DNA of 33,825 bases, taken from the IMG/VR virus record IMGVR_UViG_3300045988_128742; one strand, given 5' to 3'. Both the position numbers and the translations under genes were made by a program. Below the pieces are notes generated by a model. The model had not been told where the DNA came from, did no database searches, and was given only the letters and a program-made list of their open reading frames with translations. Shown in pieces: positions 3,200 through 7,822 of this stretch (its first letter is position 1; the number at the start of each line of letters is the position of its first letter). The stretch is from a virus. Lineage: Duplodnaviria; Heunggongvirae; Uroviricota; Caudoviricetes.

Positions 3200-3445
3200 A
3201 TGACTTTTGATGAAAAAGAACTTGATAATGCAATTAATAAAATCATCGTAACGTCGCTCTTTTCCTGTCTCAGCGACACTCAGCAAAAACAGTTCTACGA
3301 ATCGGCTTTCAACATGATCGAGCGTTGTTGTTTCTGCGATGCCGACGAGTTACCTGAAAAAATCAGGAAACAGTTGGCTGATGCTCTTCGAGTGCGACTT
3401 TCTGACCAATTTTCTGAAATGTACTCTCCGAATTTGGACAAATAG
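3200..3445 (+). CDS. Hypothetical protein (81 aa), AT-rich
   Basis: ORF with AAGGA SD 9 nt upstream of ATG; opposite orientation to the surrounding leftward operon; its 3' end overlaps the convergent ORF 3363-3638. Confidence 0.4.
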   Translation: MTFDEKELDNAINKIIVTSLFSCLSDTQQKQFYESAFNMIERCCFCDADELPEKIRKQLADALRVRLSDQFSEMYSPNLDK

Positions 3446-3638
3446 AAAAAGGCCATTTCCATTCAGGGTCTGATGGAAATACTTCAGCCTGTTCCAAAGC
3501 ACGGCGTAAAGAGAACACAACTCCAGCCATAATCTGATGTTTCCCATTGGTCCAGCTATCGCCGCTCTGATCTACAGGGGCGGCTATGTCGTATGACCAA
3601 ACGACTTCACAGTTATTGTTTAAAATCTGGACTTTCAT
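3363..3638 (-). CDS. Hypothetical protein, first ORF downstream of the predicted PL promoter
   Basis: Track ORF 3363-3680; start assigned to the internal ATG (MKVQILNNN) preceded by AGGTG SD. No arginine-rich N-like motif. Confidence 0.45.
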   Translation of the reverse strand: MKVQILNNNCEVVWSYDIAAPVDQSGDSWTNGKHQIMAGVVFSLRRALEQAEVFPSDPEWKWPFSICPNSESTFQKIGQKVALEEHQPTVS

Positions 3639-3747
3639 TTCATACACCTGCTTTAACATGAGTGCCTGGTGGCACAACATGACTCAACGAATCATCCTGG
3701 ACTTCATATGCCCCAGGCGGCTACTTCGTGGGCGTCCTGCCTGTACG

Positions 3748-3792
3748 TTGTTTCGCTTGGGTACATTATGTATCTCAAAGGTACATTGTCAA
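3748..3792 (-). promoter_or_regulatory. Predicted PL-like leftward promoter with two operator-like sites
   Basis: On the minus strand: -35 TTGACA (3792-3787), 16-bp spacer, -10 CATAAT (3770-3765). Overlapping operator-like sites ATGTATC-N5-GGTACAT (3768-3786) and TTGTTTC-N5-GGTACAT (3748-3766) resemble the OR palindrome. Confidence 0.5.
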
Positions 3793-3795
3793 GTA

Positions 3796-3820
3796 TAAAA
3801 AAACCTGCCGAAGCAGGTTC
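3796..3820 (-). terminator. Intrinsic terminator downstream of cI
   Basis: Minus-strand RNA: stem ACCTGC / GCAGGT with UUCG tetraloop followed by seven U; lies 12 bp past the cI stop. Confidence 0.7.
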
Positions 3821-3831
3821 ATAAACATTGA

Positions 3832-4506
3832 TTAGGCTTTGATTTTGTATCTTCTTGGTTTTCCTGAGAAAATCACTGTACCAATTATAGAGCAATTACC
3901 GTTGATCTTAATGTAAGGCTCAGGCCAGTTTGGGTTTAACGCTTTGAGATAACGCTGTGTCCCATCTTCTATCAACCTTTTGAAGGTGGTTTCGCCTGTA
4001 TCGTGCATCAATGCAATAACGTCGTCACCGTGGCAGGCAGGTACTTCAGGATCGACAAAAATCATGTCTCCCGGGCGGTACTCATCAATCATTGAATCAC
4101 CTATCACCCGCAAGATATAAGTCATTTCCCCACAGGGTACAGGGCAGGGATACGTTTCTGCTGTGCTCAAATCAACCTCAGAATATCCAACTTCTTTCCA
4201 TGCTCCGGCCTGTACCCATGATATGACAGGGACTAATGTGATTTGTTTATTAGTGATTGAAACATCAGGTTTTTTTGTGATGTTCGTTGTCTGGTGTTCT
4301 TGATCGAGCCATCCGACAGGCAGGTCGAAACATTTTTCGATGTGTCGTGCCATGCTGTCACCGATATTTTTAGTAGCACCATCTCCCATAAACCTGCTGG
4401 TCTGGGTTGGCTCGCGATCAATCATAGTGGCAAAGGAAGAATTCCCGCCAACACCATCTCTCAGTTTTCTGGCGTTAGACCGCCGGATGTCATGGATTGT
4501 TTTCAT
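3832..4506 (-). CDS. cI: CI-type prophage repressor (N-terminal HTH, C-terminal S24 LexA-like autopeptidase domain)
   Basis: 224 aa; C-terminal domain has the Ser (GDSM) and Lys (TFKRL) dyad context typical of LexA/CI autocleavage; divergent from cro across an operator-rich intergenic region. No SD upstream of the ATG. Confidence 0.85.
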   Translation of the reverse strand: MKTIHDIRRSNARKLRDGVGGNSSFATMIDREPTQTSRFMGDGATKNIGDSMARHIEKCFDLPVGWLDQEHQTTNITKKPDVSITNKQITLVPVISWVQAGAWKEVGYSEVDLSTAETYPCPVPCGEMTYILRVIGDSMIDEYRPGDMIFVDPEVPACHGDDVIALMHDTGETTFKRLIEDGTQRYLKALNPNWPEPYIKINGNCSIIGTVIFSGKPRRYKIKA

Positions 4507-4828: not shown

Positions 4829-5392
4829 ATGAGGCTAACCGTGGGTAAGCATCACTGGAAAATAGAAAAACAGCCTGAGTGGTACGTGAAAGCTGTCAGA
4901 AAAACTATCGCGGCGTTGCCGGGTGGTTACGCTGAAGCGGCTGACTGGCTCGATGTAACAGAAAACGCTTTATTCAACCGCCTTCGTGCAGATGGCGATC
5001 AGATTTTCCCGCTGGGATGGGCAATGGTTTTACAGCGTGCTGGTGGCACTCACTTCATTGCTGATGCTGTGGCGCAGTCTGCAAATGGCGTCTTTGTGTC
5101 TCTTCCTGACGTGGAGGATGTGGACAACGCCGATATCAACCAACGCCTGCTGGAAGTCATTGAACAGATCGGCAGTTATTCAAAACAGATTCGTTCAGCA
5201 ATTGAAGACGGTGTAGTGGAACCGCATGAGAAGACAGCAATTAACGATGAGCTGTACCTCTCAATTTCGAAGCTGCAGGAGCATGCAGCACTGGTCTACA
5301 AAATCTTTTGCGTTTCAGAAAGTAGTGACGCCCGCGAGTGTGCAGCTCCGGGCGCCGTGGCGTGTCGTGACTGTGGAGAAACTAACGCATGA
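4829..5392 (+). CDS. CII-like regulatory protein (possible YdaT/CII family)
   Basis: 187-aa ORF immediately after cro, the canonical cII position; family assignment from memory only. Alternative GTG start at 4841 has a better SD (GAGG). Confidence 0.5.
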
Positions 5393-5727
5393 ACAGTTTA
5401 ACAACACACTACCGTCGCTCGCAACTGATTGCGCTTCCTGTACCGGGTGGAAAAGCGAAGGTGGAGTATTGCTATGCAGTAAATGTACCAGGTGACAGGG
5501 AAATTGTAACCCACAGCTTTGCAGAGTGGGCTGTGGGTGATTTCAACCGGCAGAAGGAGACAGTCCTTTGCGACAAGTTAACCGCTGGTTCAAAGATCAC
5601 TACGGAGTGCCCGTCAGAGTCATTCGTTGGGAACCGGAAACACAACGGGTTATCTACCTCCGCGAAGGCTATGAGCATGAGTGCTTCAGTCCGCTCGAAC
5701 AGTTTCGTCGTAAATTCAGGGAAATAG
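5389..5727 (+). CDS. Hypothetical protein (112 aa)
   Basis: ORF whose ATG overlaps the upstream stop as ATGA; ends 10 bp before the replication gene. Low-complexity C-terminus lowers confidence. Confidence 0.4.
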
Positions 5728-5736
5728 AGGTCGGTC

Positions 5737-6678
5737 ATGAGCACTAAATTAACCGGCTATGTATGGGATGGTTGCGCAGCGTCAGGCATGAAATTATCCA
5801 GCGTGGCAATTATGGCCCGCCTGGCTGATTTCAGTAATGACGAAGGTGTGTGCTGGCCATCAATTGAAACCATTGCCCGCCAGATTGGCGCGGGGATGAG
5901 TACCGTCAGAACGGCTATCGCACGGCTGGAAGCAGAAGGCTGGTTAACGCGTAAGGCGCGTCGCCAGGGTAACCGCAATGCGTCGAATGTTTATCAGCTT
6001 AACGTTGCGAAGCTTCAGGCAGCGGCATTTTCTCAACTGTCAGATTCTGACCCGTCAAAATCTGACGCATCAAAATCTGACCCGTCAAAATTTGATGCGT
6101 CGAAATCTGGCAAAAAAGCGGGTTTTCACCCGTCAGAATCTGGCGGGGATCCGTCAGTAAAATCAAAACATGATCCGTCAGATAAAAAACCTTCTCGTCC
6201 GGACGCTTCGCAACCGGACACGCAGACGGCTGAACAGGATTTTTTAACTCGCCATCCTGATGCGGTTGTATTCAGCCCTAAAAAACGCCAGTGGGGGACG
6301 CAGGATGATTTGACCTGCGCACAGTGGCTCTGGAAAAAAATCATCGCCCTGTACGAGCAGGCTGCCGAATGTGACGGCGAGGTGGTTCGTCCCAAAGAAC
6401 CGAACTGGACAGCCTGGGCAAACGAAATTCGCCTGATGTGTGTGCAGGATGGTCGTACTCACAAACAAATCTGCGAGATGTACAGCCGCGTCAGCCGCGA
6501 TCCGTTCTGGTGCCGTAACGTGCTCAGCCCGTCGAAGCTGCGGGAAAAATGGGATGAGCTTTCCCTGCGCTTATCGCCGTCCGTCAGCACATACACAGAA
6601 AAACGTGAAGATCCGTACTTCAAATCCAGTTACGACAACGTGGACTACAGCCAGATCCCGGCAGGATTCAGGGGGTGA
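5737..6678 (+). CDS. Replication initiator protein (lambda O-like role; N-terminal winged-helix DNA-binding domain) with internal origin
   Basis: 313 aa; N-terminal HTH-like region SIETIARQIGAGMSTVRTAIARLEAEGWL; central tandem peptide repeat DPSKS/DASKS encoded by DNA iterons; GAGG SD upstream of ATG. Confidence 0.75.
   Translation: MSTKLTGYVWDGCAASGMKLSSVAIMARLADFSNDEGVCWPSIETIARQIGAGMSTVRTAIARLEAEGWLTRKARRQGNRNASNVYQLNVAKLQAAAFSQLSDSDPSKSDASKSDPSKFDASKSGKKAGFHPSESGGDPSVKSKHDPSDKKPSRPDASQPDTQTAEQDFLTRHPDAVVFSPKKRQWGTQDDLTCAQWLWKKIIALYEQAAECDGEVVRPKEPNWTAWANEIRLMCVQDGRTHKQICEMYSRVSRDPFWCRNVLSPSKLREKWDELSLRLSPSVSTYTEKREDPYFKSSYDNVDYSQIPAGFRG
6037..6190 (+). repeat. Iteron array (candidate phage origin of replication) inside the replication initiator gene
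   Basis: Five abutting 15-bp direct repeats (6037-6111), approximate consensus CCGTCAAAATCTGAC, plus three further spaced copies (6129-6144, 6152-6165, 6175-6190) and an adjacent A-rich tract. Confidence 0.7.
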
Positions 6679-6680
6679 TC

Positions 6681-7169
6681 ATGAGTCTTTTGAATGAAGT
6701 TCAGAAATTCATTGAAGCCCATCCGGGGTGTACTTCCGGAGACATTGCGGATGCTTTTGCAGGTTACTCACGGCAGCGCGTTCTGCAGTCAGCAAGCAAG
6801 TTACGTCAGAGTGGGCGTGTGGCTCACCGTTGTGAAGGAGATACACGCAGACATTTCTCGCGCCTGACTGAGAGAGCGCAGGAGCCGGAACCACAACCAG
6901 TTCGTGAAACCAGACCTGTGCGCAAGTTCTATGTCGGCACTAACGACCCCCGGGTGATTTTGTGCCTGACCCGCCAGGCTGAAGAACTGGAGTCGAGGGG
7001 CTTATACCGTCGTGCTGCAACGGTGTGGATGGCGGCATTCCGTGAAAGCCACTCCCAGCCAGAACGAAACAATTTTCTGGCGCGTCGTGAACGGTGTTTA
7101 CGGAAAAGCAGTAAGCGGGCTGCATCAGGTGAAGAGTGGTATCTCTCAGGGAATTACGTGGGGGCTTAA
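6681..7169 (+). CDS. Putative regulator with PerC-like C-terminal motif
   Basis: Track ORF starts at GTG 6675; ATG at 6681 preferred. C-terminal segment LESRGLYRRAATVWMAAF...ERNNFLARRERCL resembles the PerC/Pch family as recalled; N-terminal half looks winged-helix-like. Confidence 0.45.
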   Translation: MSLLNEVQKFIEAHPGCTSGDIADAFAGYSRQRVLQSASKLRQSGRVAHRCEGDTRRHFSRLTERAQEPEPQPVRETRPVRKFYVGTNDPRVILCLTRQAEELESRGLYRRAATVWMAAFRESHSQPERNNFLARRERCLRKSSKRAASGEEWYLSGNYVGA

Positions 7170-7822
7170 TGAGTAATAAATATTGCCAGGCGCTGGCGGA
7201 ACTGCGGAACAAACCAGCCCATGAACTGAAGGAAGTGGGCGATCAGTGGCGCACGCCGGACAACATTTTCTGGGGAATTAACACCCTGTTTGGCCCGTTT
7301 GTTCTGGATCTGTTCACTGACGGTGATAACGCCAAATGTGCTGCGTATTACACGGCGGAAGACAACGCGCTGGCGCATGACTGGTCAGAACGCCTTGCGG
7401 AGCTTAAAGGTGCTGCCTTTGGTAATCCCCCATACAGCCGCGCCAGTCAGCATGAGGGGCAATACATCACCGGCATGCGTTACATCATGAAGCATGCCAG
7501 TGCCATGCGTGATAAAGGCGGGCGCTATGTTTTCCTGATCAAAGCTGCCACCAGCGAAGTGTGGTGGCCGGAAGATGCAGATCATATTGCTTTTATTCGC
7601 GGGCGTATTGGTTTTGAACTGCCTGCCTGGTTTATCCCGAAGGATGAGAAGCAGGTGCCGACAGGCGCTTTCTTCGCTGGTGCTATTGCTGTTTTCGACA
7701 AGACCTGGAAGGGACCGGCAATCAGCTACATCGGGCGCGATGAACTTGAGGCATGTGGTGAGGCCTTTCTGGCGCAGGTTCGCCAGCAGGCAGAAAAACT
7801 GGTCAGGGAGATGGCGGCATGA
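7169..7822 (+). CDS. Phage N6-adenine DNA methyltransferase (Dam-like orphan MTase)
   Basis: Contains the NPPY catalytic motif (AAFGNPPYSR). ATG at 7169 overlaps the upstream stop as TAATG; the track ORF begins at an upstream GTG (7136). Confidence 0.8.
   Translation: MSNKYCQALAELRNKPAHELKEVGDQWRTPDNIFWGINTLFGPFVLDLFTDGDNAKCAAYYTAEDNALAHDWSERLAELKGAAFGNPPYSRASQHEGQYITGMRYIMKHASAMRDKGGRYVFLIKAATSEVWWPEDADHIAFIRGRIGFELPAWFIPKDEKQVPTGAFFAGAIAVFDKTWKGPAISYIGRDELEACGEAFLAQVRQQAEKLVREMAA

Follow-up and report, generated by a model that had tools for sequence, protein, structure and literature searches.

In phage lambda, the replication origin lies inside the gene of the initiator protein O. The lambda record shows four 18-bp iterons (repeat ATCCCTCAAAACGAGGGA) at codons ~117-145 of O, which are spaced 20-24 bp apart and followed by an A-rich tract and a 28-bp palindrome. 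The phi80 record shows four gp15-binding sites (repeat TTCCCGAAAACGGGAA; annotated as 15-16 bp, spaced 20-21 bp) in the middle of gene 15, again followed by an A-rich tract and a palindrome. Both initiators work with P-type partners. A 2025 survey of 314 lambdoid phages reported 'O-only' replication modules, such as that of phage LLS, in 34 of them (Genome Res 2025, PMC12315714). Casjens, Smith and co-workers stated there that loader-less lambdoid replication 'is not yet understood', and the passages of that paper on the 'O-only' modules describe no iterons, no DnaT, and no origin. In the present study, we analyzed a 33,825-nt stretch of viral DNA (IMG/VR virus record IMGVR_UViG_3300045988_128742; the window, hereafter), which represents an SfII/SfIV/SfV-type lambdoid phage of E. 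coli/Shigella and, like the 'O-only' modules as those passages present them, has a single O-like gene and no helicase or loader. The replication initiator is a 313-residue open reading frame (ORF) at 5737-6678 on the plus strand, and an array of 15-bp repeats lies in its middle. We found that this array probably constitutes the replication origin of the phage, embedded in its own initiator gene after the lambda 'ori inside O' design, in a variant that lacks a loader; this reading is drawn from comparative sequence evidence.

The principle of an origin within the initiator gene is textbook knowledge. For the variant with an HTH_36 head, abutting 15-bp palindromic iterons, no loader, and a DnaT-like tail, we found no description in the searchable literature. 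The Llarena 'Eru' paper mentions neither iterons nor the initiator described here. The Kozlowska paper on the O proteins of P27/933W deals with lambda-type O and its iterons, not with the phiP27 HTH_36 protein. The SfIV genome paper mentions the replication module and no origin, and nothing on an origin was found in the literature on yfdO/CPS-53.

The array begins with five abutting 15-bp iterons (I1-I5; 6037-6111) with the core GTCAnAATCTGAC, as recognized by direct reading, repeat searches, and a position matrix. In codon register, the units are CTGTCAGATTCTGAC (6037), CCGTCAAAATCTGAC (6052), GCATCAAAATCTGAC (6067), CCGTCAAAATTTGAT (6082), and GCGTCGAAATCTGGC (6097). A sixth full iteron, CCGTCAGAATCTGGC, with two mismatches to the consensus, stands isolated at 6130-6144, 33 bp after I5. 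A preliminary description of the window had counted five abutting repeats and three spaced copies; we found the five abutting repeats and one full spaced copy, that at 6130, but the other two are half-units. It had also placed the repeats inside the initiator ORF and read from them a tandem peptide, DPSKS/DASKS, and both points agree with our results. The array occupies codons 101-136 of 313, between the DNA-binding domain at the N-terminus and the C-terminal domain (the N-domain and C-domain, respectively), and the units are translated as LSDSD PSKSD ASKSD PSKFD ASKSG ... PSESG, i.e., as SD(P/A)SK repeats.

Tandem Repeats Finder described 6046-6109 either as 4.3 copies with a period of 15 or as 2.1 copies with a period of 30. 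A repeat search gave in-register copies at 6025, 6040, 6055, 6070, 6085, and 6118, plus the half-unit GATCCGTCAG at 6148 and 6172. The 14-mer consensus CCGTCAAAATCTGA, with three or fewer mismatches allowed, had 10 matches in the window, as compared with 3.3 +/- 1.8 expected; none of 100 shuffled sequences reached 10, and eight of the 10 matches fall in 6037-6146. No other local family of direct repeats in the entire window has more than two copies.

For comparison, we assembled 80 related loci from Enterobacterales, taking a single genome from each species, and added Citrobacter phage phiNP and phage mEp460. Among the collected loci, 63 have both the N-domain type of the window and the array, and these were used for the position matrix and the codon statistics. 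The matrix, based on 413 units, reads nnnTCA(A/G)AATCTGAn. The number of copies per locus is 5-11, and 280 of 350 intervals are 15 bp long. The 33-bp spacing to the isolated iteron was seen in 47 loci, and the isolated iteron itself is nearly invariant across the 63. The iteron core is a 13-bp imperfect palindrome (self-complementarity 6-12 of 13), the most symmetric cores being those at 6039-6051 (12/13) and 6132-6144 (10/13). Between I5 and the isolated iteron, species comparison revealed a variable spacer and then a conserved TTTT(C/G)AC motif (together 6112-6129): positions 6112-6121 differ among species, and 6122-6126 (TTTT) are at least 95% conserved. A weak terminator-like element on the minus strand (6132-6119), a 5-bp hairpin with a T-run, is not conserved as a hairpin. 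As single-stranded DNA, both strands of the region 6025-6225 fold far better than shuffled controls (z -4.3 and -4.0), because the half-sites alternate in orientation every 7-8 bp.

Immediately to the right of the isolated iteron lies an A-rich, low-GC block (6145-6192), which contains two half-iterons, GATCCGTCAG, and two GATC sites and is a candidate unwinding region. The GC content in 6150-6199 is 0.325-0.35 with a positive AT skew, i.e., the top strand is A-rich. The A-rich tract that the preliminary description placed after the repeats is real but modest: 6150-6189 is 67.5% A+T, at the 98th percentile of the 40-bp segments of the window. The half-units, at 6148-6157 and 6172-6181, are part of a block, GATCCGTCAGTAAAnTCAA....GATCCaTCAGATAAAAAACC, that is common to the N-domain types N1 (that of the window), N2, and N3, despite their differing iterons. 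The half copies are therefore a common element and not specificity iterons. This common block could be the unwinding region, a target of Dam/SeqA, or a recombination linker. The two GATC sites (6148-6151 and 6172-6175) are 24 bp apart and conserved across species (GAT codons in 63/63 and 56/56). GATC is not enriched in the window (136 sites, as compared with 131 expected), nor are close pairs uncommon; what stands out is solely that this pair is conserved across species. Methylation of the origin might conceivably be linked to SeqA.

The right edge of the conserved DNA is marked by an imperfect palindrome, GTCCGGACGC-TTC-GCAACCGGAC (6197-6219). In the window this palindrome is degenerate, with arms matching at 8/10 positions; it was recognized by direct reading and was not reported by the repeat finder. 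The consensus of the family is GTCCGGTTGC-nnn-GCAACCCGAC, with arms matching at 9/10 positions (locus L106, 2961-2983). A palindrome is also present at the equivalent relative position in lambda (L166, 563-590) and phi80 (L165, 8779-8800).

Codon usage changes sharply at the array. The normalized codon entropy was 0.79 in 87 columns of the N-domain, as compared with 0.21 in 51 columns of the array and A-rich block (Mann-Whitney p=1.3e-18). Conserved residues of the N-domain use 2-6 synonymous codons, with the majority codon averaging about 55%. Between about codon 99 and codon 155, hardly any variation in codon choice is left: S107 is TCA in 62/62, S109 is TCT in 53/53, D138 is GAT in 63/63, V141 is GTA in 63/63, and S143 is TCA in 58/58. 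Between the window and phiNP, the N-domain (100 codons) has 41 synonymous and 13 non-synonymous codon differences, and the array (52 codons) has two synonymous and nine non-synonymous differences. The block 6112-6189, which aligns without gaps, has 78 positions, of which 41 are conserved to 95% or more and eight to less than 60%, and the two kinds are interleaved; overall pairwise identity is 0.78 in this block versus 0.71 in the N-domain. As conserved and variable sites are interleaved and the identity is only 0.78, the pattern indicates site-by-site purifying selection on the DNA and not a recent spread. Judged by codon choice, the repeats are selected as DNA and not merely as peptide. The peptide encoded by the array (residues 102-160) is predicted to be disordered, with an AlphaFold2 predicted local distance difference test (pLDDT) score below 50, which fits a linker whose amino-acid sequence is of little importance.

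The repeat sequence also follows the type of the N-domain. Seven repeat consensus sequences pair with seven N-domain types or subtypes. Besides N1, with the matrix and spacing given above, N2 (MSSKLHGLVWEG...) has CCyCAAnnnTTGAC (for example, the unit CCCTCAAATATTGAC), the L101 subtype has TTCAGATTCTGAA, and N3 (L139) has GGCTCACnnnGTGAC, all three with 15-bp spacing; lambda and phi80 have their own repeats. In the case of the mEp460 type, whose N-domain is unrelated, the repeat is CATCGGGTCAAAATG and the copies are 23-24 bp apart, and are therefore in more than one reading frame.

The domains of the initiator are combined in different ways. The C-terminal half of the mEp460 protein is 96% identical to that of the window from query position 443 on, and its N-domain and array differ. 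phiNP has the N-domain and array in common with the window (query positions 2-479, 83% identity) and a different C-domain, of the Phg_2220_C type. Many genome loci match residues 1 to about 165 only, after which the C-domain switches. Altogether, the N-domain with its array occurs in combination with two or more unrelated C-domains, and the window-type C-domain with six or more types of N-domain, every one of which has an array of its own; the mosaic joints lie at about 6179-6243. As the domain types assort independently, the N-domain and the array travel as one unit, with the joint just to the right of the array. Two loci with the array and no N-domain (L086 and L087) were considered as a counter-example and set aside, as they match an N-terminally truncated pseudogene of the CPS-53 region. 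In the K-12-derived E. coli MG-phbCAB-3-6, the array and C-domain are found in such a truncated initiator pseudogene of the cryptic prophage CPS-53/KpLE1 (L168, 3472-4179), which adjoins the PerC-like yfdN; this strain carries an orphan copy of the putative origin without the binding domain.

The initiator matches phrog_391, 'replication initiation O-like', over residues 1-313 (PHROGs, E 8e-136). Its sequence is the same (100% identity) as that of the 'DNA replication protein O' from Escherichia phage vB_EcoM-720R4, and Shigella phage SfIV gp41 is 98.9% identical to it. Its N-terminal winged-helix domain (amino acids 1-98; 5737-6030, plus strand), the presumed reader of the iterons, matches Pfam HTH_36 (PF13730) at residues 23-70 (E 4e-11), and the Pfam search gave no match to Phage_rep_O (PF04492). 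The AlphaFold2 model of this domain is a winged helix-turn-helix (wHTH) with block-mean pLDDT of 63-88, and its top Foldseek matches are dimeric wHTH proteins of the MarR/ArsR type; a PDB sequence search with the initiator gave only weak MarR matches, to the wHTH domain. In the C-terminal half, the domain at amino acids 169-278 (6241-6570, plus strand) is homologous to the C-domains of lambda O (BLASTP E 7e-26) and phi80 gp15 (36% identity, E 4e-25). NCBIfam and Pfam searches with this half gave no match, Pfam giving none for residues 157-313 even at E<=10; the model of the C-domain is helical, with block-mean pLDDT of about 67-91. Given this C-domain homology, the initiator is an O-type protein with a swapped DNA-binding head and matching iterons.

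Like oriλ, the locus has mid-gene iterons with internal dyad symmetry and, after them, an A-rich tract; the palindrome that comes next is degenerate in the window. Like O, the initiator consists of a DNA-binding N-terminal part, a linker encoded by the putative origin, and a C-terminal domain. The locus differs from lambda in its N-domain (HTH_36, in place of Phage_rep_O), in its five plus one units of 15 bp, five of them abutting, in its weaker A-rich tract, and in the absence of a P gene after the initiator. The protein ends in ..SQIPAGFRG, whereas lambda O ends in ..NTDWIYGVDL (as seen at the end of the alignment). phi80 has the same architecture as the window, but it has a Phage_rep_O N-domain and an adjoining P-like gene (gp14), and gp15 ends in ..TDWAYGVIR without a DnaT-like tail. 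Unlike plasmid iteron origins of the pSC101, R6K, and RK2 class, the repeats lie inside an ORF, and no DnaA boxes are found in the window. The preliminary description had called the arrangement lambda O/ori-style. The selection on DNA, the co-variation, the layout, and the C-domain homology bear this out, but the N-domain belongs to HTH_36 and not to the lambda O family. The sequence-level predictions of the lambda-style reading that could be tested were borne out, with the palindrome present in the window in degenerate form.

On the lambda paradigm, dimers of the N-domain would bind the palindromic units and build an O-some-like nucleoprotein complex; a MarR-like dimeric wHTH domain would suit palindromic sites. 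The complex would strain and open the adjoining A-rich block (about 6145-6192), and rightward transcription from pR through the initiator gene would help the opening. The protein segment encoded by the array would serve as a disordered linker only. As the phage has no helicase loader or helicase gene, the C-domain and the DnaT-like tail would have to bring the host DnaB-DnaC, or the host primosome, to the opened DNA.

Several points weigh against an origin at this site. We infer binding, unwinding, and replication from the sequence. The A-rich block, at 67.5% A+T, is less extreme than that of lambda. The abutting units recur every 15 bp (1.43 helical turns), an uncommon spacing for iterons and one on which the packing of dimers is hard to picture. 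In N1-type loci, nearly all tandem copies are spaced at multiples of 3 bp (15, 33, and 48), and therefore the reading-frame argument against a pure peptide repeat rests on relatives such as the mEp460 type. No match to the DnaA box TTWTNCACA is present anywhere in the window; as there is also no loader gene, the step from the open complex to the loaded helicase lacks an identified player. Finally, the window covers 33.8 kb of a phage of roughly 35 kb, and a second origin could lie outside it.

The repeats might instead be protein-binding sites for regulation, acting in autoregulation of the pR operon by roadblock, in incompatibility or handcuffing, or in the control of downstream genes. The comparative results reveal a cis element that co-varies with a DNA-binding domain and do not by themselves place the start of replication there, and RefSeq labels the initiator family only as 'helix-turn-helix domain-containing protein'. 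We regard a purely regulatory role as unlikely, since the position, the order of the elements, and the C-domain all have counterparts in lambda and phi80, whose corresponding arrays are origins. In addition, the motif does not recur near promoters in the window, and the phage needs an origin, the initiator being its only replication gene. The preliminary description had left room for a separate origin elsewhere; the window contains no other origin-like array.

The conserved DNA might also be a recombination linker for the exchange of lambdoid modules, without a function of its own. The mosaic joints do fall at the right end of the block, and its right part (GATCCGTCAG...TGTCCGG...GCAACC) is common to initiators with different iterons and C-domains. 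However, the conservation is position-specific, with variable bases interleaved and the modest identity noted above, which is unlike the outcome of repeated homogenization; and as the iterons differ between N-domain types, they cannot be a universal linker. A linker without other function thus seems very unlikely for the locus as a whole, although such a role could be partly true for 6145-6222 alongside the origin role.

According to another explanation, the repeats are a slippage-prone, low-complexity peptide linker (DPSKS/DASKS) with no role in cis. The predicted disorder of the segment, the changes of copy number among relatives in steps of five amino acids, and the N1-type spacings in multiples of 3 bp would all be expected of such a linker. 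Nevertheless, synonymous sites are frozen while amino acids change, and the repeat tracks the N-domain type and, in the mEp460 type, occurs in different frames. A pure peptide linker is contradicted by the codon data, and we consider this explanation highly improbable.

Equally hard to credit is the idea that the constraint stems from a structured RNA or from an overlapping gene, either antisense or in an alternative frame: one antisense frame is free of stops for at least 45 codons in 63/63 loci and both strands fold well, but a palindromic tandem repeat gives open alternative frames and fold potential automatically, no ATG start is conserved (the minimum ATG-initiated length is 0 among the 63 loci), and the co-variation with the N-domain would be left unexplained. 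A promoter scan of 5600-6800 found no sigma-70 promoter-like site. The lone Rfam match in 5500-6900 was a spurious microRNA match (30.7 bits, as compared with a gathering score of 97) caused by the palindromic repeats and was rejected.

The origin reading accounts for a repeat-containing linker with frozen codons in a large protein family, and it provides an origin signature for the annotation of prophages, namely, an N-domain type together with its cognate 15-bp palindromic array. The question of how the host helicase is recruited could also be addressed at this locus, where the cis element is defined, the trans factor is a single protein, and the DnaT-like tail is a candidate motif.

With regard to helicase loading, tblastn searches of the window found no relative of lambda P, phi80 gp14, or DnaC, and the record of a 100%-identical phage of ~35 kb has no annotated helicase, loader, or primase gene. 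The initiator is the sole replication gene of the phage. The absence of a loader agrees with the preliminary description, which had noted that neither a P-like loader nor a DnaB/DnaC-like gene follows and that the next gene is PerC-like (Pfam PF06069, E 7e-9). The C-terminal tail of the initiator, SQIPAGFRG (6649-6675, plus strand), is identical at eight of nine residues to the end of E. coli DnaT, SQIPPGFRG (171-179), and is C-terminal in both proteins. The common terminal motif is ..(S/T)xIPxGFRG-COOH, and ..IPxGFRG-COOH is conserved in 35 DnaT orthologues. In the window initiator the tail is predicted to be disordered (AlphaFold2). An hhalign comparison of the window-type C-region with DnaT aligned the last 20 columns only (E 1.2e-4), and the Pfam DnaT_DNA_bind domain (PF17948), a three-helix-bundle domain that binds single-stranded DNA, was not found in the window initiator. 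We therefore rejected a relationship between the whole C-domain of the window and the C-terminal domain of DnaT; such a relationship is supported for the commoner Phg_2220_C-type relatives, in which the final stretch of about 47 aligned columns corresponds to DnaT 122-179 (probability 93%, E 3.7e-7, with 43% identity). Unlike the window initiator, DnaT has no sequence-specific DNA-binding domain. A DnaT C-terminal (DnaT_C) motif was noted earlier in DopC, a domesticated O-like protein with an HTH_36 N-domain (Brezellec 2017, PMC5509034).

We compared the tails with the presence of a loader gene in 83 loci, the window included. Initiators with the GFR tail occur in 53 of the 83 loci (L118, L121, L148, and others besides the window), with two unrelated C-domains and at least four N-domain types, and none of the 53 is followed by a P, gp14, or DnaC-like gene. 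A P-like gene comes after the initiator in all eight cases with a W..W..L ending. Tail and partner are paired in a third way in L154 (uncultured Serratia sp.), which has the same N-domain and array; its initiator ends at ~3403 with ..TDDDFI, which recalls SSB's C-terminal tail, and the next gene (3408-4130) is 45% identical to DnaC. A third loader-less group (335-374 amino acids; Providencia, Yersinia, Rahnella, and others; L095-L104, L120, L135, L138, L144, L145, L151, and L155-L162) ends in ..IWKxxAQRxxxGxxAA and lacks the GFR tail, and no P or DnaC-like gene is found within 2.5 kb.

These observations raise the possibility, which we put forward tentatively, that the initiator tail recruits the host loading machinery. 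Loader-less lambdoid phages might then manage without P because the P-binding tail was replaced with a copy of the host DnaT's flexible tail (..IPxGFRG), which would plug the opened origin complex directly into the host DnaB-DnaC or PriA-PriB-DnaT machinery; we offer this as a speculative scheme, and it may well prove wrong. If it is true, the tail is a short, portable motif that chooses the helicase-loading route of an origin, and it points to the partner of DnaT's own tail. In the papers on DnaT structure that we consulted, the last ~20 residues are described only as a flexible tail, and no partner is named.

The early-right genes of the window are arranged in the order S24 repressor (on the opposite strand), CII-like, DUF4222 ORF, initiator, PerC-like, Dam methyltransferase, LexA-N-like, and RusA. 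The PerC-like ORF (6675-7169) overlaps the stop of the initiator (an ATGA-type overlap, 6675-6678), and its end overlaps the Dam ORF by 34 nt. This tight packing suggests translational coupling. The Dam-type methyltransferase (7136-7822) is encoded two genes downstream of the initiator, and in the phage record a second DNA adenine methylase is annotated near the lysis genes.

Upstream of the initiator, a small ORF of 59 amino acids (5568-5747, plus strand) matches DUF4222 (Pfam PF13973, E 8.6e-19). Its end lies 11 nt inside the initiator ORF, and it also overlaps the ORF at 5389-5727. Of 82 other loci searched, 65 have a homologue at this position, irrespective of the type of N-domain and of the presence of a loader. 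This conserved companion of the initiator might play an accessory part in replication. In the records of SfIV and vB_EcoM-720R4, the DUF4222 ORF is absent from the annotation, and the overlapping YmfM-like ORF is called instead.

The putative origin region is widespread: of 5426 complete E. coli genomes, 1946, among them that of MG-phbCAB-3-6 with its CPS-53 prophage, contain at least 80% of the segment 6000-6250.

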